Shown piece by piece: positions 17,021 to 31,099 of a DNA stretch of 64,000 nt (its first letter is position 1; every line of letters begins with the position of its first letter). Origin of the DNA: a virus. Lineage: Duplodnaviria > Caudoviricetes. The notes under the pieces are model-generated. The model was not told the origin of the DNA. It saw only the letters and a program-made list of their open reading frames with translations, and searched no databases. Where the stretch lies: positions 1,526 to 65,525 of IMG/VR virus record IMGVR_UViG_3300033076_001518; one strand, given 5' to 3'. A program made the translations under genes and the position numbers.

Positions 17021-17988
17021 GCGGCGAAGGGCCGCTGGCCAAACTCCTCACCGCGCTCATCAACGGCGCGAGCGCGCAGAAGAAACTCGAGCGCGCCGTC
17101 GGAGAAGAGTTCTACCGCGCAGCGGACGACGTGCCGGACATGTTCCGTCGAGGCCGTCGCTACGGACAGTCGCGAGCTGATCTCGAGAATCAGTTCGGGG
17201 TTCAATTCCGCGACTATCCGGGTTCGACCAGCGTCACCGTGCCCGGCGCGGCGGGTAAGGCTTCGATGGACTACGTGATGAGTCCCGGGCCAAGCGACAC
17301 CGCCACTTTTCCGCGGTACCGGCCGCGGGTCATGTTCGATACGTCTATGCTCGCTCCTCCAGGCACCTCTAGCGGCGCGGGTGCGGGGCGCGGAGCCTAC
17401 GCAGCGATGTTCGGTACTTTGCTCGAGAATCCCGAGCTCGTCAACATGGTCGATTCGACGGGGCTCACTCGCCGTAACGAGCACCGGCGCAACCTCAACC
17501 AAGCCGCAGCGCTACTACGCGCTCCGGAGCTGAGCCGTCAGATCGCACTCGATCCATTCCAGTTCGCTCACCAACGCAGGGTCGATCCAGAGCAGTTCAT
17601 GAGGCGATCCCCCGTAGAACAGGTCGGAGCACTGCAGGCAGAGGGCGCGCTGCAGACGATCCGCCGCATGGACGAAACGGCGCACGCAGCAAAAGGCAAA
17701 GCAGGAGGAGAGGAATTCGCAGCAAAGCTGCAGGAAGCTCGGCGTCGGGCTTTCCGAAGCTCCGACCCGGCAGATTTCAGCGTGCTGGCTACGCTACTGA
17801 GAGAAGGCGAGAGCCTCGGCATCCCCAAGAGTCTTTACGACACCATTGGCGAGGGCGCCCTCCGCCGCGCCGCCTTGGTGAGCGACATCGTCGATGGGCG
17901 CCCCGGGGCGCGCGCGAACCTGTACTCAGGTCTGGAGTTCGCTCGCGGCGGCGGCGTTCGCAACGGCCGCGGCTTCTTCCGCCGCTAG
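17017..17988 (+). CDS. hypothetical late protein ending in an FARGG motif
   Basis: 323-aa ORF with ATGA coupling; last gene of the + strand arm. Confidence 0.6.
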   Translation: MSGEGPLAKLLTALINGASAQKKLERAVGEEFYRAADDVPDMFRRGRRYGQSRADLENQFGVQFRDYPGSTSVTVPGAAGKASMDYVMSPGPSDTATFPRYRPRVMFDTSMLAPPGTSSGAGAGRGAYAAMFGTLLENPELVNMVDSTGLTRRNEHRRNLNQAAALLRAPELSRQIALDPFQFAHQRRVDPEQFMRRSPVEQVGALQAEGALQTIRRMDETAHAAKGKAGGEEFAAKLQEARRRAFRSSDPADFSVLATLLREGESLGIPKSLYDTIGEGALRRAALVSDIVDGRPGARANLYSGLEFARGGGVRNGRGFFRR

Positions 17989-18798
17989 ACGACGCGCCAG
18001 CAGTCCGCTCGCCAGCCGCGCGACGCGGCCGGTCTCGGCGTGAAGTCGGTAGGTCTCCGCGCCGTTGTAGCCCCCCGCCAGGTTCCAGACGATCGGGGTG
18101 CGGGTGGTCATGGCGGTCAGGAAGACCATCTCGTCACGGTCGCGCCAGTCGTTGTCGGTGAGGTAGCCCACCCCGTACGGGTCGTTCTCGTGGGCGTCGG
18201 CGCCTGCCTGGTACAGGATCAGGTTCCACGGGCCGTCGCGCAGCGCGGCGTCGATCCGGTGGAACCAGGTCGTGCGGCTCATGCGCGTCACGTTGCGGAT
18301 GTACGCGCCGAGCCCCAGCCTCGCGATCACGTCGTCGGTGCCGTCGCCGTAGTGGCCGTCGCCGTCGATGATCAGCACGCGCCCCACGATCGGGCAGCCG
18401 AGCGCGACGAGGGCCGCCAGCACGAGCCCGTTGAACGTGCAGTAGCCGTGGCCGTCCGCGAAGCCTGCGTGATGGAACCCGCTGACGGGCGCCAGGATGG
18501 GGTCGCCCGGGTTCTTCAGCGCCAGCTCGGCCGCGGTGCGCATGGCGCCGTTGGCGGCCAGGACGTGCGCCAGCGTACGCTGGTCCTGGGTGCCGAACCC
18601 GTTGCGGCGCGTGCCGTTGAGGACGCTGTCGACGTAGTCCATGCTGTGCACGCTCACCAGCTCTTCGCGGAACGCGGGCGGGGCGAGGGCTTCCTCGTCG
18701 TCCGGGCCGAAGATGGCGTCGACGACGCGCTTCGGCTTCGACAGCGAGATGAATGCTTCGGGCATGGCAGCGAGCGCAGGGTTCCAGGTGAACTTCAC
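17926..18798 (-). CDS. histone deacetylase (HDAC/AcuC/APAH) family Zn-dependent deacetylase
   Basis: GTG 18798 with AGGAGG, overlapping the upstream stop; SGFHHA, GYCTFN, IIDGDGHYGDGT, AGADAHENDP and AGGY motifs in canonical order. Confidence 0.9.
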   Translation of the reverse strand: MKFTWNPALAAMPEAFISLSKPKRVVDAIFGPDDEEALAPPAFREELVSVHSMDYVDSVLNGTRRNGFGTQDQRTLAHVLAANGAMRTAAELALKNPGDPILAPVSGFHHAGFADGHGYCTFNGLVLAALVALGCPIVGRVLIIDGDGHYGDGTDDVIARLGLGAYIRNVTRMSRTTWFHRIDAALRDGPWNLILYQAGADAHENDPYGVGYLTDNDWRDRDEMVFLTAMTTRTPIVWNLAGGYNGAETYRLHAETGRVARLASGLLARRLAAEEAAAVANAAAASELQT

Positions 18799-19184
18799 GG
18801 GTAGACCTCCTTGATGAAGGCGTTCAGTATATCCCGGATTTCGGCAAGTTCGTCGACGCGCCCCCAGCAGTAAAGCGCGCCGAGGATGCGCTTTTCTGCG
18901 GACGTCAGCTGGGGCCGCGCGGCGATGTAGCGGGCGAGCGGCGTCGTGCCGTGACGGTGGCGCCCGTGCGGATGGTAGCGCCCCTGGTTCACGACCTCGA
19001 TGAGCTTCTCGAGGTAGTGGCTGGCCTTCTCCAAGTCCTGGCGCCCGGCCTTCTTGGCGTGGCGGTCCAGGTACTTGGTGAACTGCCCCTCGAGGTAACT
19101 GAGGTTCGCATCGACGACGAAGTCCCAGTGCTGGTACGGGGCCGCGTAGTGGGTACCGCCCACCTGGCGTTCGTTGGCGCTCAT
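18795..19184 (-). CDS. DUF3310/SaV-like nucleotide-modification-associated protein
   Basis: RQVGGTHY...QHWDF...KYLDRHAKKAGRQDLEKASHYL. Confidence 0.75.
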   Translation of the reverse strand: MSANERQVGGTHYAAPYQHWDFVVDANLSYLEGQFTKYLDRHAKKAGRQDLEKASHYLEKLIEVVNQGRYHPHGRHRHGTTPLARYIAARPQLTSAEKRILGALYCWGRVDELAEIRDILNAFIKEVYP

Positions 19185-19735
19185 TCCATCTCCCTGAGTT
19201 CGGCGAGGATCGCACGCGCTGCGCCGAGGTCGAAGTTCGGGCGGTCGTCGTGCAGCCGGGCCAGCTTGGCGAAAGCGTTGCCGGTGTAGGCAAGATAGTT
19301 TTCGAAGATGGGGTCTACCAGCTTGTTGCCCATGAGCCGCTCGCGCCGGCAGAAGAGCAGCCCTTCGAGCTTGTCGACGAAATCGGCCACCGCCGCCTCG
19401 AAGCCAGAAAGCGGCGGCGGGACGTAGTCGACACGTTCACGCAGCAGCTCGGCCTCGACGTTGTCGATGTTGCCCTGACTGTGCGCATCGAGTCTTCGCT
19501 TGAAGTTGCCCGGGATGTCGCCCGTGAACCGCTCGCCTGCATCATGGCCCAGCAGGTGGAGAAGAAGCGCGCCCGGCGGCTCGTCGCGGTAGAACGTCGT
19601 CGCGAGCCAGATGAGGTTGTAGACGTGCTGCGCCACGTCCTGACGGCGGATGAGCCCGCCGAGCGAGGTGTGGTAGCGAAGGGTCTCGCCGCAGCGCAGA
19701 CGGCCCTCGACGAGTGCTAGCGAAAGGCTGCCCAT
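19181..19735 (-). CDS. HD-domain deoxynucleotide hydrolase (YfbR-like)
   Basis: RYHT...QDVAQH...HDAGERFTGDIP...DKLEG; ATG 19735 just after the upstream stop. Confidence 0.8.
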   Translation of the reverse strand: MGSLSLALVEGRLRCGETLRYHTSLGGLIRRQDVAQHVYNLIWLATTFYRDEPPGALLLHLLGHDAGERFTGDIPGNFKRRLDAHSQGNIDNVEAELLRERVDYVPPPLSGFEAAVADFVDKLEGLLFCRRERLMGNKLVDPIFENYLAYTGNAFAKLARLHDDRPNFDLGAARAILAELREME

Positions 19736-19737
19736 GA

Positions 19738-20760
19738 TCAGCGCACCTCCGCCGTCGGCACGGACTTCTTCAGCCGGCGCTCGAGCCACTCGTAGCCCGC
19801 CGCGTGCCAGAGGTAGACGTCCGGCGCCAGCAGCTGCATCGCCTCCTCGGTCTTGCCGGCCTTGTGCAGCTTGTGCGCCACGAACATCGGCAACGCCACC
19901 TCGTTCAGGAACGGGAACCGCCAGAACGGCGGCTCCGGGTCCTCAGGGTCCTTGAGGAACATTTTGAGCGCGCGATCGAACGTGTCCCAGTCCCGGGGCT
20001 CCGTGAAGAGGGGCGGGTTCTCGAGCTGATGCGTCCGCGTCTTGGGTTCGTCGGCCCCGTTCATGAGCTTGCGAACGTCGTCCCGATCGATGTACGCGTG
20101 GTAGTTCCAGCTCACCTGGGTGAACGTGCCGACCGCCTTGCCAATCGCGCAAGCCAGGTACTCCTGGAGGAAAGTGAAGTGGACGACGTTGGCTCCGTAG
20201 GCGCCCCAGACGATGTCGTTGGACCGGCACATGACCATCAGGTCCAGCAGCGCGCCGTTCACCCGCACGTACACGTGGGTGTTGCAGGGGACGTCGCGCG
20301 AGAAGTTCGGGTTGCTCAACATGCCGGCCGAGAGGTCCTTGGCGCCGTCCCACATCGCGATCACCACGCGACGCGAGCTCGGGTTGTTGCGCAGCTCGGA
20401 GATGACGTCGTAGAGCTGATCATGACCGAAGTGGTACCGCCACCGGTAGCCGTAGGCCCCGTTGAGCGTCTGCCCGTCGTCGGAGAACTCGGAGAACCGC
20501 GGCACGAAGCGCGTCAGGAACTCGAGGTCGTTTCGCCCCACCAGCATCCACAACGCTTCGAACAGGTGGAAGAACGGGTTGGCATCGCGGAGCGGCGAGA
20601 GCGCGACTCGATTGCGAGGCGCCGGGTAGACGGTCGTGACGGGCTGAGGCGAGACGAGCACGGTGCCGTTGCGGCTGGACTCTTTCGCGCCGGTGCTACC
20701 GAGCAGAGAGAGTCCTTGACGCAGCGCGTCGTCGGGGTTGAGGGCAGTGATGTGGAACAT
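19738..20760 (-). CDS. thymidylate synthase-fold enzyme, probable dUMP hydroxymethylase
   Basis: SRRVVIAMWD, DVPCN (catalytic Cys), RSNDIVWGAYGAN (Asn at the dUMP-specificity position), NYHAY; adjacent to a 5hmU-kinase-type gene. Confidence 0.85.
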   Translation of the reverse strand: MFHITALNPDDALRQGLSLLGSTGAKESSRNGTVLVSPQPVTTVYPAPRNRVALSPLRDANPFFHLFEALWMLVGRNDLEFLTRFVPRFSEFSDDGQTLNGAYGYRWRYHFGHDQLYDVISELRNNPSSRRVVIAMWDGAKDLSAGMLSNPNFSRDVPCNTHVYVRVNGALLDLMVMCRSNDIVWGAYGANVVHFTFLQEYLACAIGKAVGTFTQVSWNYHAYIDRDDVRKLMNGADEPKTRTHQLENPPLFTEPRDWDTFDRALKMFLKDPEDPEPPFWRFPFLNEVALPMFVAHKLHKAGKTEEAMQLLAPDVYLWHAAGYEWLERRLKKSVPTAEVR

Positions 20761-21633
20761 TCATACTCCTGGGTAAGTGGCGCGGGGGCGGCCCTCGCCT
20801 AGTCTAGCGCGTTCGTACTTGTCGAATTCGCACAAAGAGTGCTCGATCTCGCGCATCTCCAGCGCGGGCTTGAAGGGCCACGTCGGAAACAGTTTCGCGT
20901 AGACCGCGCGCATGGCGTCCAGTGCTCGGCCGTCGCTCATGGCGTTGCGAACCGGCAGGCCCATGAGCCGATTCAACCCCCGCTTGGCGCCGGGCCCCGC
21001 GTGGGCCCACCCGCGGGCGTCTTGTAGCCACGGCACTTTCTGCCCGTAGCGCGTGTAGCGCGCGTCGCACACTACCTCGTAGGCAGTGAACCCGCCCCAT
21101 CCGTGGTACGGCAGGAGCGCGGCGTGCGCCTGCTGCATGCTGCCGTACTCGAACGCCTCGCGGACCTTCTTTCGGTCCTGCCACACGCTATCTAGCACGA
21201 GCTTCGTGGTGAAGAACGCCTTGTCTTTCGGGTCGTCGGGCTTCGTACCGTGCGCATTGAGCATGTACGCGCCCGTGTACAGCTTCTCGCCGCGGGCCTG
21301 CCGCGCCAGCATGATCTTGCGGATCTCGCGCCAGTCGTAGTTGCCGCCCACCCGGAACTTGGCGCTCTCAGCGTAGATCTCGGCCAGCGTTTCGGGCCAG
21401 TTGATCTGTCGCGCCATGCAGAGCCGGAACCAGAGATTCGGGCAGTCGGCGTAGGGCTCGCGGATGTTCTCCCGAATCCAGATCGTGACCGTGTCCAGCT
21501 CGCGGTAGACGTTGCAGAACCGGTAGCGCTGCAGGACCGGGTCATCGGTCCAGGGCTTCGCTTCTCCGGCGTCGCGCTTCAGGTAGATGTTGTGCCGCTT
21601 CATCATGAAGCGGCGGAGCGGGTCGATCTTCAT
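20761..21633 (-). CDS. 5-hmdU DNA kinase helical domain / aGPT-Pplase1-family protein
   Basis: PWTDDPVLQRYRFCNVYRELDTVT, GFTAYEVVCD, GPGAKRGL, IEHSLCEFDKY.R motifs; ATG 21633 overlaps the upstream stop. Confidence 0.85.
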   Translation of the reverse strand: MKIDPLRRFMMKRHNIYLKRDAGEAKPWTDDPVLQRYRFCNVYRELDTVTIWIRENIREPYADCPNLWFRLCMARQINWPETLAEIYAESAKFRVGGNYDWREIRKIMLARQARGEKLYTGAYMLNAHGTKPDDPKDKAFFTTKLVLDSVWQDRKKVREAFEYGSMQQAHAALLPYHGWGGFTAYEVVCDARYTRYGQKVPWLQDARGWAHAGPGAKRGLNRLMGLPVRNAMSDGRALDAMRAVYAKLFPTWPFKPALEMREIEHSLCEFDKYERARLGEGRPRATYPGV

Positions 21634-22343
21634 TTGACCGCCCTTTCGGCGACGGCCATCTGCTCCGGCGTGCCGACAGGGTGCCAGCCGTTCACTTCGA
21701 CGGCGCCGCAGCCGAGAGACAGAAACGAACTCATAGACCGCTCGGAGCCGCCGAGCAAAACGGACGCAGCACGAGAGCGGAAGTAGCCGAAGCTCGGAAA
21801 TCCGTAGATCCCAGTGCCGACCAGCCAACTCCCGAGAGAAGGCTCGTAGTTGAACCCGCGTTTCTCGTTCATGTCGAGCGCGGAGCCCTCGCACACTCGA
21901 GCACAGCAGAAACTCGTCGCCGACAGCCAGACCGGCTGCGGAGCCACCGTGAGGAACTGGTCCCCGATCGGCAGCTGCTCGATCCACCCCCGCTGATCCG
22001 GCGCGTAGTAGTTGTCGCAGTCCATGAAGACCACGGGCTCGTCGGGCGGGAGATGCGCGCCGGCCAGCAGCGCGCTCGCCGCGGGGCCGGGCTGCGTGAT
22101 GCTGACGGGGACCATGTAGTCTTCTTCGAAGTACGGGGCGTCTTGACGGGCGAATTTCGCGACTTCCGGGGTCACGACGAAGACGAGACGCTCCGGCTTC
22201 ATCTCGATTGCCAGCTCGGCGGTGTGATCGAGCAGCGTCTGGCCTCTGAACGTCAGCAGCGGCTTCGGCGTCGTTACGCCTGCAGCCGAGAACCGTTCGC
22301 CGCGCCCGGCGGCCAGGATGACGACGTTAAAGGCGCGTGGCAT
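21630..22343 (-). CDS. sugar-phosphate nucleotidyltransferase (NTP_transferase family)
   Basis: VILAAGRGERF...TPKPLL, VFMDCD, GIYGF, WHPVGTPE. Confidence 0.85.
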   Translation of the reverse strand: MPRAFNVVILAAGRGERFSAAGVTTPKPLLTFRGQTLLDHTAELAIEMKPERLVFVVTPEVAKFARQDAPYFEEDYMVPVSITQPGPAASALLAGAHLPPDEPVVFMDCDNYYAPDQRGWIEQLPIGDQFLTVAPQPVWLSATSFCCARVCEGSALDMNEKRGFNYEPSLGSWLVGTGIYGFPSFGYFRSRAASVLLGGSERSMSSFLSLGCGAVEVNGWHPVGTPEQMAVAERAVK

Positions 22344-23052
22344 AGCTCATGACCTTTTCGTAGAACTCGGTTTGGCGAGGGAAGAACGGCGGCTCCTTGG
22401 CGGCTACTCGCACCGCGTGCGACACGAGGTAGTAGCCAAGGAGCGCCAGATCCGGCCGGTACTCACGCATTAGCCGCTCGACCTCGCGCCAAAGCGCGCG
22501 CGAACGAGCGCCGTCGGTGTCGAATCCGAGTGCGCTGAACATCATCTTCGACAGATCGACTTCGAACTCCGGCGGCGCTGCGCGCGGGGAGAAATCGATG
22601 AGACGGACGCCATCGCGGGTCCAGACTGCGTTGGACAGCGTCGCGTCGCCATGAACGAAGGCGTTCTGCGAGATGGGCAGCCCCGCCATGCTCGCGTAGT
22701 GGCGCCCGAGCGCCGACAGGAGCGAGGTGCGGAGCCCGTTGCGGACTTCGGAGCGCTCCATCTGCGTTGTCACGTAGCGATGGTACGCCTCCCGCGTGCA
22801 GGCGGCCCGCGGCGAGTTCTCGCGCCAGAGCCGCTCGAAGCAGTGAGCGAAGTCGGTGATCGAGCCGAGCGGGATGGGCGCCATCGCCAGCGGCATCGCG
22901 AAGCTCGTCCGCGACATCGGCTCCACCGCCATGGCAACGGTAGCCGGCGCGGCCACCATGATGCGGTACTGCGCCTCGCACTCGGCCACGGACTCGAACG
23001 TCTTCAGCACGCTCAGTCGCGCGCCGCTGGGTCTCTTCTCACTGCTGCTCAT
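22327..23052 (-). CDS. APH / choline-kinase-fold phosphotransferase
   Basis: HGDATLSN catalytic loop, LIDF metal-binding motif, DLSKM. Confidence 0.75.
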   Translation of the reverse strand: MSSSEKRPSGARLSVLKTFESVAECEAQYRIMVAAPATVAMAVEPMSRTSFAMPLAMAPIPLGSITDFAHCFERLWRENSPRAACTREAYHRYVTTQMERSEVRNGLRTSLLSALGRHYASMAGLPISQNAFVHGDATLSNAVWTRDGVRLIDFSPRAAPPEFEVDLSKMMFSALGFDTDGARSRALWREVERLMREYRPDLALLGYYLVSHAVRVAAKEPPFFPRQTEFYEKVMSYATRL

Positions 23053-23848
23053 TGATGCCGCTCTCCAGCGCTTTCTTCCACGAAACGACCACCTCCTTGC
23101 GAGGGGTGCCCTTGTAGTTCTTGTCGACCACGCGCACGAAGCCAGGGTGAAGCGCGGCGAGCTTGTGCGCGGCGGCGTCGCTGGCGGAGACCGTTCTCTC
23201 GCCGCTACAGCCGCCGGGAGCGCCGTAGGCCCCCGGGGCGACGCACCAGTCGTAGCACTGAATGCTCTCTTGACCGGCGCGCAGCAGCGTGAGCGCCATG
23301 TGGAAGTCCTCGCGGAAAGCGACAGCGTTGAACTTGAACTTCATCTTCACCAGCTCTTTCCGCCGGTAGCCGAAGGCGTGCATGAGCCGATTGGCGCCGC
23401 GCTTCCAGTCGAGAGGCTCCAGGTCATTGCCGAAGCGGCTGCTGATGCCGACGGACGAATGGTCGGAGTTCAGCCCGAACTCCAGCTCTTCGAACAGCCG
23501 CTGGACGCCTCCGTCCGTCACGTAGTCGAGGCTCAGCGTCTTGTGCCCAGGGCGGGCCTTCCAGCGCCCGTCGCGGTAGTCGCGGTAGTGCATCTCGCAC
23601 CGCTTGTAGAAGACCATGTCGTCGTCCAGCATGAAGACGTCGTCCTTGACGTTCTCCAGAATCCACTGGCGTTTGTCGGCGATGGTCTTGACCGGCGCGT
23701 TCTTCACGTGCCGATGGGTCCGCCGCAGAGCTTCGTGCTCGGCTGCGTCAGACGTGATGAGAAGAACCTCCCGGCGCAGCGCGTCCGGGAGGGCGGCCAG
23801 AGTCGTCTGCTTGGCGACTCGACCGTAGGTTGGGATGACAATCCGCAC
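23039..23848 (-). CDS. GT-A fold glycosyltransferase (TET-associated TAGT/GREB1-like)
   Basis: IVIPTYGR, KRQWI, FMLDDD (DxD), REDFHMALTLL, GGCSGER. Confidence 0.8.
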   Translation of the reverse strand: MRIVIPTYGRVAKQTTLAALPDALRREVLLITSDAAEHEALRRTHRHVKNAPVKTIADKRQWILENVKDDVFMLDDDMVFYKRCEMHYRDYRDGRWKARPGHKTLSLDYVTDGGVQRLFEELEFGLNSDHSSVGISSRFGNDLEPLDWKRGANRLMHAFGYRRKELVKMKFKFNAVAFREDFHMALTLLRAGQESIQCYDWCVAPGAYGAPGGCSGERTVSASDAAAHKLAALHPGFVRVVDKNYKGTPRKEVVVSWKKALESGINEQQ

Positions 23849-23891: not shown

Positions 23892-24596
23892 CTACTTGAC
23901 TTCGATGAACTCCATCTTGACGTCCCAGTTCACGTCGGCCCGGGTGCCGCCGGCCGCGATGTACTCGTCGACGGTCATGCCGTTCTTGTACAGCGCGAAG
24001 CGGGTCGCGGCGGCCGCACGCTTCGGGTTCTCCTTGACGAGGATCTTGATCTTGGCCGAGCCGTCGATGTTCGGCTTGCGGCCGCGCGTGCCGGCCTCCT
24101 CGGCGGCGGGGGCCTTCTTGGCGGCGGGCTTGTCGGCGGACTTCTTCGCGGCGGGCTTGTCGGCCGCCTTCTTCGCGGGGGTTGCGGCCTTCTTGGCCGC
24201 GGAGGTCTTGGCGGATGCCATGATGTCGTCTTCTCCTGGTTCGGTGACGGGGTTGGTGGGGGTAGACGCTGGAATGTCGACGTCCGGCAGCTCGACCTTG
24301 CGATCGAACTTGCCGTCCGCGATTCGGCCGAGTAGCGTACGAACCTCGGCTGAAACTTTGGGTGAGTAGCCGTCCTCGACGCTCAGGTAGCGCTGGGCGG
24401 CACGGCCGGGGGCGTAGTCGGTCTTCTCGAAGCGGCGGAAGAACGCGTCCTGCGACTCGCGCTGAACGACGAGCTCGACGGGCGAGTACGCCACGAAGCG
24501 CACGTACTTGCGGTCGACGCCGAGCAGGATGCAGCTGTGGCGACCCGCGTCGCGGTAGACGGCGCACTCGTCTTTGTGAACGTCGAATTTGTTCAC
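23892..24596 (-). CDS. protein with Lys/Ala-rich histone-H1-like linker and conserved C-terminal domain (paralogue of 44798-45430)
   Basis: GTG 24596 overlaps the upstream stop; AAKKAATPAKKAADKPAAKK followed by NPKR...RFALYKNGMTVDEYIAAGG. Confidence 0.7.
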   Translation of the reverse strand: MNKFDVHKDECAVYRDAGRHSCILLGVDRKYVRFVAYSPVELVVQRESQDAFFRRFEKTDYAPGRAAQRYLSVEDGYSPKVSAEVRTLLGRIADGKFDRKVELPDVDIPASTPTNPVTEPGEDDIMASAKTSAAKKAATPAKKAADKPAAKKSADKPAAKKAPAAEEAGTRGRKPNIDGSAKIKILVKENPKRAAAATRFALYKNGMTVDEYIAAGGTRADVNWDVKMEFIEVK

Positions 24597-24787
24597 AGCT
24601 GACCCTCCGCGATTGCCTTGGCGATCAACGCCAGGAGCTTCTCCGCCGGCATCTTGGCGAACTTGGCCAGCGGCTCCAGCTCCAGGCACATAGCGTAGCG
24701 CGCGTTCTCGTCCGCCATCATGATGGCGTCGGCACCGTGCTTCTCGATGAAGCGAGCGCGCTGCTCTTTGAACTGATCCATGTTCAT
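24593..24787 (-). CDS. hypothetical protein
   Basis: Short ORF coupled to the downstream gene. Confidence 0.55.
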   Translation of the reverse strand: MNMDQFKEQRARFIEKHGADAIMMADENARYAMCLELEPLAKFAKMPAEKLLALIAKAIAEGQL

Positions 24788-30054: not shown

Positions 30055-30593
30055 AGACTCACCCGTGCGATCTCGGAGCCTTCCATGAAGTGGGATGACA
30101 AAGCGCCGCAAGGCACCACGTCGCTCGTGAAGCGGCAAGAGACGGCGATGATCGTCTCAGTGGGCGGCGGTGGCGGTGGCGCGAGGCCATCCTCTTTCGC
30201 GCATTTCATTTCGTGCTCCCAAGCCCAGAGCGAACGCTTTGGGTCGCACGAAACTTCGTACTCGTCTAGTCGCGGGTGGCGCTGCCAGCAGATGGTCCCG
30301 TGGGGAGCCGGCCAGCCGGGGCGCAGCGAGTCCAGGAAAAGTTCCAGGAGTCGCGCGATCTGAGCATCCTTCGGCTTCGCCGGGTCGACTCGCGCAGCAA
30401 GACCGAACGAAGAGTAGACGTACTCCTCGCCGTTGATCTTCGTCGACCACGTGGTGCCGACTTCCGAATGTACGTAAAGGAAGAGCCGTTCGATCGCACG
30501 CTTCAGATCGTTCAGCTGGCGCGCGCGGGCGGCAAAGGGTGCGGGGCGGGGGTCGTCGACAACGTCGAGCGTCATGTTCGGCGACATCCTCAT
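30051..30593 (-). CDS. hypothetical protein
   Basis: ATGA/GTGA coupling on both sides. Confidence 0.55.
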   Translation of the reverse strand: MRMSPNMTLDVVDDPRPAPFAARARQLNDLKRAIERLFLYVHSEVGTTWSTKINGEEYVYSSFGLAARVDPAKPKDAQIARLLELFLDSLRPGWPAPHGTICWQRHPRLDEYEVSCDPKRSLWAWEHEMKCAKEDGLAPPPPPPTETIIAVSCRFTSDVVPCGALSSHFMEGSEIARVSL

Positions 30594-31099
30594 TTCGGCC
30601 CCCAGATCCGGGCGTCCTCCACGTCGTCCGGCTCGCAAGCGTCCAGCAGCACCTGGGCCACGTTGGGCGGACGGTAGTTCGGGCCTTTCACGACCTTGCC
30701 GTGACCGTCGTGGATCGGGCGCCCATCGGCGCCGAGCTTGGACATGTTGGCGCGGTGGATCTCGGCCACAACCGCCTCGGCCGGGAACCCGAAGACGAGG
30801 TTCGCCCCGGCGCAGACGTAGTCGATGTCGCCCAGCGCGTCGGCCGCCGCGGGTAGATTCACTGGCGCCGCCGGGTCGATCGAGAACGCCGACAGCACCT
30901 CCTTCACCTTCGCCTCGAAGTCCTCTTCCGAGCCTTCGGTGAGCGGCGCCACGCCGGAAGCCCGCCCGAACTCCAGAACCTCCTCCAGGAGGAGCCGAAA
31001 ACGGAGCTCACGCTCCTTGGCCGAGGGGGTGCGGGGGACGTGATGAACGGGATGGGAAAACGCGAGGTGGAAGAGCCTGACGAGTTTGATGGTGTGCAT
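30590..31099 (-). CDS. MazG-like / PRA-PH-like dNTP pyrophosphatase
   Basis: RFRLLLEEVLE, DALGDIDYV, EIHRANMSK...GKVVKGPNY. Confidence 0.85.
   Translation of the reverse strand: MHTIKLVRLFHLAFSHPVHHVPRTPSAKERELRFRLLLEEVLEFGRASGVAPLTEGSEEDFEAKVKEVLSAFSIDPAAPVNLPAAADALGDIDYVCAGANLVFGFPAEAVVAEIHRANMSKLGADGRPIHDGHGKVVKGPNYRPPNVAQVLLDACEPDDVEDARIWGPK

Follow-up and report, generated by a model that had tools for sequence, protein, structure and literature searches.

A split kinase and nucleotidyltransferase pair beside a TAGT-type glycosyltransferase: a predicted phage route to sugar donors for thymine-replaced DNA

The glycosylation of phage DNA decides whether a phage is sensitive to restriction, CRISPR, and type IV (GmrSD/BrxU-like) defenses. 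To our knowledge, arabinosyl-5-hydroxycytosine is so far the only case in which a phage has been shown to make the sugar donor itself. The subject here is a candidate for another such route, which consists of three adjoining genes for a glycosyltransferase (GT), a kinase, and a nucleotidyltransferase (NT) in the DNA of an uncultured phage (Duplodnaviria; Caudoviricetes). The DNA analyzed is a stretch of 64,000 nucleotides (IMG/VR record IMGVR_UViG_3300033076_001518, positions 1,526 to 65,525), called the window below, and it covers nearly the whole of a viral genome that is complete at 65,525 bp, carries direct terminal repeats, and has a G+C content of about 66%. The tail genes are similar to those of Caulobacter phages. 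With a probability of roughly 0.7, judged from sequence, structure models, and analogy, the three genes supply and transfer the sugar in a pre-replicative pathway of thymine replacement and glycosylation, and would be a split, minimal version of the route known from the phage protein AfhE.

Among the described systems, phages RB69, DLP3, HY126, and Maestro make arabosylated 5-hydroxycytosine (5hoC) by means of a KdsD-like isomerase, the bifunctional AfhE, and the HAD phosphatase AfhF (PMC13326640). In AfhE, an N-terminal MurU-like NT domain is followed by a C-terminal, APH-like kinase domain, and the protein acts both as an arabinose-5-phosphate 1-kinase and as a UDP-arabinose pyrophosphorylase (PMC13326640). 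Proteins of this type include RB69 gp52:53, DLP3 gp82, and Maestro gp83, and HY126 has one too (PMC13326640, citing He et al., Mahler et al. 2025). On the side of transfer, the characterized GTs of the TAGT type move sugars from UDP-sugars, either UDP-glucose (UDP-Glc) or UDP-N-acetylglucosamine (UDP-GlcNAc), onto 5-hydroxymethylpyrimidines in DNA (PMC8256090). An “APH phosphotransferase” has also been listed, without analysis, among the neighbors of GT-A genes in viromes (Pyle et al.).

The three genes and their predicted products

The open reading frames (ORFs) fill positions 21630-23848 of the window exactly, all on the minus strand, and are transcribed in the order GT (23039..23848, 269 aa), kinase (22327..23052, 241 aa), and NT (21630..22343, 237 aa). 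A preliminary description of this DNA, made from the sequence alone, had recognized adjacent and overlapping genes for a kinase, an NTP transferase, and a GT; the genes are there, but not in its order of kinase, NT, and GT. The GT and kinase frames overlap by 14 nucleotides (nt), the kinase and NT frames by 17 nt, and the NT frame overlaps by 7 nt with the next gene, for the HMUDK_hel protein, whose real start is at 21636. The third-position GC is 0.8-0.9 in exactly the frames of the GT, the kinase, and the NT, so these are real coding genes. Terminator-like sites are absent from the minus strand between 17 and 27 kb, which, together with the overlapping frames, means that the three genes share one long unit with those downstream. 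The GT, the kinase, and the NT are translationally coupled. All of the motifs first pointed out in these proteins were found again: HGDATLSN (residues 134-141) and IDF (152-154) in the kinase, LAAGRGERF and PKPL in the NT, and DDD (75-77) in the GT. A nucleotide search of 50,697 phage records gave no match.

The AlphaFold2 model of the kinase, built on an alignment of 50 homologs, has a pLDDT of 95.9 and shows a compact APH/choline-kinase fold. Its match to APH(4)-Ia has a Z of 16.4, with 223 aa aligned at 3.4 Å, and the other structural matches, which include LicA (Z 15.1), fructosamine-3-kinase (FN3K), methylthioribose (MTR) kinase, and maltokinase, are all small-molecule kinases. Structural neighbors in the Atlas also include viral 616-aa proteins of the NT family. 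Residues H134, G135, D136, N141, D153, D166, and K169 are invariant in the kinase family, and K17 is nearly so. The enzyme is presumed to be a sugar (anomeric) kinase. The family is rare, with 49 representatives at E <= 1e-3 among 1.8 billion proteins, and it was met only in viral or metagenomic DNA. A close alignment of the kinase found no relative in 185,579 species genomes, a scan of IMG/VR with the kinase alignment found nothing, and tblastn at 1e-5 found no match in the 50,697 phage records. When the kinase and the GT were compared with the sequences of the PDB by phmmer, nothing meaningful was found.

The NT is of the NDP-sugar pyrophosphorylase type and is recognized by Pfam NTP_transf_3 (E 3e-13) and NTP_transferase (E 3.5e-6). 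Its AlphaFold2 model (pLDDT 91) is closest to glucose-1-phosphate thymidylyltransferase (Z 23.6, 220 aa aligned, 2.7 Å), and the next matches are GalU and the N-terminal region of GlmU. In an alignment with E. coli RfbA, the NT keeps the equivalents of RmlA R16, K26, and D110/D112, as well as the sugar-phosphate-binding E162-K163. It is 28% identical to ORF235 of the Ralstonia phage phiRSL1 over the full length (E 4e-14), and tblastn of the NT at 1e-5 gave no match in the 50,697 phage records. The NT family is acidic, in contrast to the basic GT family. RmlA Gln83 gave no reliable guide to the nucleotide used, because the NT has a loop of another length at that position and cannot be aligned with confidence there, and no call was made.

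The GT is of the GT-A type and belongs to the TAGT family. It scores 36.1 bits against Pfam TAGT (PF20691; cut-off 27.5) with a match that covers only residues 1-85, while its orthologs in the relatives L004 and L005 match TAGT over about 200 residues. The match of the window GT to phrog_842 (E 3e-42) runs along its whole length. Asp residues D75, D76, and D77 are invariant in 42 GT homologs, and the family has a median pI of 9.3. Matches to the GT in the 50,697 phage records came only from phiRSL1, PhiJL001, and one virome genome; the identity to phiRSL1 ORF237 is 39%. There is no second GT in this region of the genome, and the GT of the window is presumed to put the base-proximal sugar on 5-hydroxymethyluracil (5hmU) in DNA.

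Both halves of the pair show remote homology to Maestro gp83, a protein like AfhE. In hhalign comparisons, the NT profile matched the NT domain of Maestro gp83 with a probability of 94.6%, and the kinase profile matched the kinase domain of the same protein with a probability of 91.5%, over 72 columns only. A D-x-x-K ... G-x-D stretch that follows the metal-binding Asp is common to the kinases. In addition, a tblastn search with phiRSL1 ORF236 finds the AfhE-type proteins.

Related viral loci and the proposed pathway

The scan of IMG/VR with the single GT sequence returned nothing; it was the GT alignment that found 440 relatives there, and the best 80 loci were analyzed by hidden Markov model (HMM) scan. 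These 80 loci are the ones nearest to the window GT, so the share that carries a kinase and an NT is biased upwards. In 44 of them the GT is accompanied only by HMUDK_hel and a thymidylate-synthase (TS) homolog, while 25, plus three incomplete loci, carry the kinase and the NT as well. Three loci have an NT with no detectable kinase, and a kinase without an NT was seen in none of the 80. Counted as 57 distinct GT loci, 21 have both enzymes, three the NT only, 33 neither, and none the kinase only. The pair always lies directly after the GT, between it and the HMUDK_hel and TS genes. In L004, a metagenome contig that is the closest relative by synteny and has a kinase 49% identical to that of the window, the genes run helicase, Lys/Ala-rich protein, GT, kinase, NT, HMUDK_hel, TS, and HD. 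With 440 relatives of its GT in IMG/VR, the cassette is common in viromes, and the kinase/NT pair is present in about a third of the nearest loci.

The exceptions to this arrangement are informative about the pair. At L010 (6866-8070) and L011 (8671-9803), the place of the kinase is taken by a HAD_2 enzyme, either phosphomutase- or phosphatase-like, and an uncharacterized ORF of about 200 aa; here the NT is supplied by another route. A HAD gene lies between the kinase and the NT at L055, two proteins (P0037 and P0062) are kinase-HAD fusions, and two others (at L024 and phiRSL1 ORF236) are NT-kinase fusions. Such fusions, substitutions, and insertions are the pattern expected of enzymes that feed a sugar-1-phosphate to the NT, and not of a DNA kinase. 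In a tree of 73 sequences, made by a quick maximum-likelihood search (IQ-TREE) and not a careful one, the GTs that adjoin kinase/NT (or HAD/NT) genes form one clade (SH-aLRT 98; 28 rows with one exception, L034), and those without kinase/NT neighbors fall on the other side of the tree. A separate clade fits a changed donor specificity, although much of this pattern could stem from the common descent of the phages.

Other features of these loci concern the glycan itself. Many kinase/NT cassettes have a second GT upstream (L023:436-1317, L045:3370-4110, L052:7205-8059), and these second GTs form a clade of their own (SH-aLRT 100), from which disaccharide modifications are predicted for those cassettes; the window has one GT only. 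At L033:8782-9492, the GT is followed by a sulfotransferase-like ORF with a Pfam match below the cut-off. Together with the sulfotransferase-like gene of phiRSL1, it suggests sulfated sugars on phage DNA.

The base that would accept the sugar can be read from the TS homolog (19738..20760, minus strand; Pfam Thymidylat_synt E 1e-20). An alignment with E. coli ThyA shows C146, Asp169, and Asn177 retained both in this protein and in the homolog of the M6-like phage Sonora. Asn177 goes with dUMP rather than dCMP as the substrate, and the 5-hydroxy-dCMP (5hodCMP) synthases have Asn at position 169 (PMC13326640). With Asp169 and Asn177 in place, and thus without the Asn that marks the 5hodCMP synthase of the phages with arabinosyl-5hoC (ara-5hoC), the window protein reads as a dUMP hydroxymethylase that would make 5-hydroxymethyl-dUMP (5hmdUMP), the precursor of the acceptor base, and the acceptor should therefore be 5hmU. 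A dioxygenase of the TET/5mYOX type was not seen in the operon; the GT cassette has the TS homolog as its neighbor instead.

In the proposed pathway, the TS homolog would convert dUMP to 5hmdUMP, and 5hmU would then be incorporated into DNA, as the conserved residues suggest. An HD nucleotidase and a MazG-like enzyme may help to exclude thymine. The kinase would phosphorylate a sugar at the anomeric position, and the NT would then form an NDP-sugar from the resulting sugar-1-phosphate and an NTP, probably UTP or dTTP; fold, linkage, and the analogy with AfhE all point to these two steps. The basic TAGT-type GT, as its family membership suggests, would then act on replicated DNA and attach the sugar to 5hmU at its hydroxymethyl group, yielding a nucleobase like base J. 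Folds, catalytic residues, and genomic linkage are what was observed here, and all of the substrates and products are what we infer. Matches to PF01380 (SIS isomerase) and to PF13419 and PF00702 (both HAD) are absent from the complete genome at E <= 1. With neither a phosphosugar isomerase nor a HAD phosphatase, the donor route is probably a two-step salvage of a free sugar, which is also its simplest reading, and not the route of AfhE and AfhF from sugar phosphate through bisphosphate to 1-phosphate.

One could go further and propose that the phage DNA carries an undescribed, base-J-like glycosylated 5hmU with a sugar that the host does not activate. That sugar would be supplied by a two-enzyme salvage with a viral and metagenomic kinase family, used by a co-diversified clade of GTs, with HMUDK_hel as a general, kinase-independent partner of the GTs that act on 5hmU-DNA. 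This fuller version is put forward tentatively.

Weighing the alternatives

A donor that the host also makes is the alternative that comes closest to the pathway above: the pair could produce UDP-Glc, UDP-galactose (UDP-Gal), or UDP-GlcNAc by salvage, securing the supply or making the phage independent of host pools. The best structural matches of the NT are glucose-1-phosphate thymidylyl- and uridylyltransferases and GlmU, the characterized TAGT enzymes use just such donors, and more than half of the related cassettes manage without a kinase and an NT, so this GT family can live on what the host provides. Nevertheless, the GTs that stand beside the pair are a separate clade, which suggests another donor specificity, and the sulfotransferases, HAD enzymes, and second GTs of the relatives point to unusual glycans. 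The kinase family, moreover, was met only in viral or metagenomic DNA, with no close relative in the species genomes, and an ordinary donor is on balance unlikely. A more specific idea, put forward in the preliminary description, is that the donor is an N-acetyl amino sugar from peptidoglycan turnover, activated as by AmgK and MurU and de-N-acetylated after transfer by an HDAC-like enzyme, which would link cell-wall salvage to DNA modification. The pair does have the fold types of AmgK and MurU, MurU is among the weak sequence matches, and an HDAC-like gene is part of the same transcription unit. That gene, however, is found in only 2 of the 80 loci, namely the window and L009 (other loci give weak, partial matches at most), the syntenic L004 lacks it, and the HDAC/acetylpolyamine family is generally known for lysine or polyamine deacylases and not for sugar deacetylases. 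The MurU model gives the NT 29.6 bits against a cut-off of 250, over residues 7-41 only, and models of AmgK or choline kinases do not match the kinase. The cell-wall link thus finds no support and is quite improbable. What survives is the general form of the salvage idea, in the free-sugar route, without the peptidoglycan amino sugar. The view that a small-molecule activation pair feeds the GT is supported by the strict linkage, the fusions and HAD substitutions, the AfhE-like homology, and the GT clade. As for LicA and LicC, which had also been raised, the Z of 15.1 for LicA is tied with those of many other kinases, with no Pfam choline-kinase match, and LicC is not within the top 50 structural matches of the NT, whose Z values are crowded and whose nearest neighbors are RmlA, GalU, and GlmU.

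It is also conceivable that the kinase acts on DNA. The genome has HMUDK_hel and lacks the P-loop 5hmU-DNA kinase (5-HMUDK), and the window kinase has a pI of 9.05; an APH-fold enzyme could thus replace 5-HMUDK and phosphorylate 5hmU in DNA, perhaps with HMUDK_hel, while the NT would act on the DNA-bound phosphate or be unrelated. Such a basic charge is not conserved, since the pI of the family ranges from 5.0 to 9.6 with a median of 7.7. The 44 loci with GT, HMUDK_hel, and TS and no kinase mean that HMUDK_hel needs none, and no amino-acid:DNA transferase (ADDT) is present to use 5-phosphomethyl-dU. Since all of its structural neighbors are small-molecule kinases, and since the kinase never occurs without the NT, gives way to HAD enzymes at some loci, and elsewhere forms fusions with them or with NTs, which are hallmarks of small-molecule metabolism, a role on DNA is highly improbable. 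Finally, the pair might be a mere neighbor of the DNA-modification genes and make a donor for another target, such as a glycan of the host envelope or a virion protein, as most GT-A genes of viromes lie away from base-modification genes (Pyle et al.). This is the least probable of the alternatives, given that the pair always lies between the GT and the HMUDK_hel/TS genes in overlapping frames and that the genome region has no second GT to use such a donor.

Returning to a sugar-donor pathway for 5hmU-DNA, several points count against it. The kinase matches Pfam APH weakly (E 0.005, below the cut-off), so its fold had to come from structure prediction, and the nearest kinase structures (Z 13-16) span so many substrates that the fold does not name one. 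The structural neighbors of the NT that lie within about 2 Z units include inositol-1-phosphate and phosphonate cytidylyltransferases, and a non-sugar phospho-alcohol is therefore possible by fold alone. The clade structure of the GTs, seen in a quickly searched tree, and the gene linkage may come in part from shared phage ancestry. The role of the co-conserved HMUDK_hel is also unexplained and could change the chemistry.

The HMUDK_hel protein (20761..21636, minus strand), formerly called aGPT-Pplase1, is helical and matches Pfam PF18723 with an E of 2e-51. Iyer et al. are said to have coined both TAGT and aGPT-Pplase as names in 2013. HMUDK_hel co-occurs with a TAGT GT and a TS in about 69 of the 80 viral loci, and the flanks of these contain neither the P-loop 5-HMUDK nor ADDT. 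This co-conservation suggests that the main association of the family may be with 5hmU glycosylation, and its role may be independent of DNA phosphorylation. A protein whose role was left open in the work on M6 and ViI is in this way tied mainly to glycosylation cassettes without a 5hmU-DNA kinase. The complete genome of the window contains neither the P-loop 5hmU-DNA kinase (PF18748) nor ADDT (PF18724), which means that the thymidine hypermodification of the M6/ViI type (PMC8989533) is not what is encoded here.

Further down the same strand lies the gene for an HD-domain, YfbR-like 5'-deoxynucleotidase (19181..19789; Pfam YfbR-like E 9e-5, below its cut-off). Its ortholog in L004 is above that cut-off, and an HD gene follows the TS in most loci. 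It probably clears canonical dTMP and dUMP and, together with a MazG/PRA-PH-like pyrophosphohydrolase (30590-31099), probably removes the canonical nucleotides dTTP/dUTP and dTMP, which would let 5hmU take the place of thymine. Beyond it, on the minus strand, are an ORF of 129 aa and unknown function (18795-19184; third-position GC 0.88; no Pfam or NCBIfam match) and the HDAC-family gene (about 17926-18798), whose extent was taken from the third-position GC. A single HDAC ORF of 455 aa (17926-19293) was rejected, since the third-position GC is coding in its frame only to about 18798 and the 129-aa gene fills the rest. Upstream of the GT are a protein with a Lys/Ala-rich linker, an SNF2 helicase, nucleases, and a family A DNA polymerase. 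The first of these, directly upstream (23892-24689), was considered as a further sugar enzyme and set aside, as this conserved protein shows no signature of an enzyme and has no match in Pfam or PHROG. Its Lys/Ala-rich linker is of the AKKA type and its C-terminal domain is conserved; translation probably begins around residue 43 of the longest ORF, and in L004 and L005, too, the gene directly precedes the GT. A part in DNA binding is only a guess.

Comparison with known systems

AfhE of the arabinosyl-5-hydroxycytosine phages is a closer precedent for the window pair than AmgK/MurU or LicA/LicC. The predicted pathway of the window and that of the AfhE phages both combine an APH-fold kinase with a MurU/RmlA-like NT for the donor of a sugar on DNA bases, and in both the genes adjoin a TS homolog and a GT. 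The differences begin with the gene layout, as the window has two genes, kinase then NT, whereas AfhE is one NT-kinase fusion. Unlike the AfhE/AfhF phages, the window genome has no arabinose-5-phosphate isomerase and no HAD phosphatase. Its GT is of the GT-A (TAGT) type, compared to GT-B in the AfhE phages, and its base would be 5hmU, made through a dUMP-type TS (Asp169, Asn177), instead of 5hoC, made through a D169N enzyme. HMUDK_hel also stands where the AfhE phages have a Tmk-like nucleotide kinase. AmgK/MurU and LicA/LicC share the two fold types of the window pair and likewise let an NT follow a kinase, but they serve the cell wall or teichoic acid. The context of the window pair is DNA modification, no sequence match at the level of these families was found for it, and its NT is structurally nearest to RmlA, GalU, and GlmU.

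Homologs of all the parts are also present in the 231-kb Ralstonia jumbo myovirus phiRSL1, in which the annotated but uncharacterized ORF230-238 (L001, 162911-177762) include the GT (ORF237), the NT (ORF235), the APH domain of ORF236, HMUDK_hel (ORF231), and the TS (ORF230). It differs in having a fusion of an NT-like and an APH domain and in having three GTs, and its cluster also holds a galactose-3-O-sulfotransferase-like protein and an APS-kinase-like P-loop protein. Of the 5-HMUDK/ADDT set that carries out hypermodification in M6, ViI, PhiW-14, and SP10, the window has only the HMUDK_hel domain. The TET-associated GTs of metaviromes (Burke et al. 2021, PMC8256090; Pyle et al. 2023/2024) share PF20691, the GT-A DxD motif, and a predicted 5-hydroxymethylpyrimidine acceptor with the window GT. 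In their case, however, 5-hydroxymethylcytosine (5hmC) is made after replication by a methyltransferase and TET and the sugars are those of the host, while in the window the acceptor would come from a TS homolog and the cassette has putative donor genes of its own.

A compact set of kinase, NT, and GT could reveal a new sugar modification of DNA and might possibly be used for the enzymatic labelling of 5hmU. If the proposed pathway is right, the cassette would extend the logic of the phage-made donor to thymine-replacing phages with GT-A enzymes. Its predicted product is also reminiscent of base J of the kinetoplastids, made by JBP1/2 and JGT, in that a GT-A-like enzyme glycosylates 5hmU in DNA at the hydroxymethyl group. 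In base J, 5hmU is made on the DNA by a dioxygenase and the sugar comes from cellular UDP-Glc, whereas in the window the base would be made before replication through the TS homolog and the sugar would come from a donor pathway of the phage.

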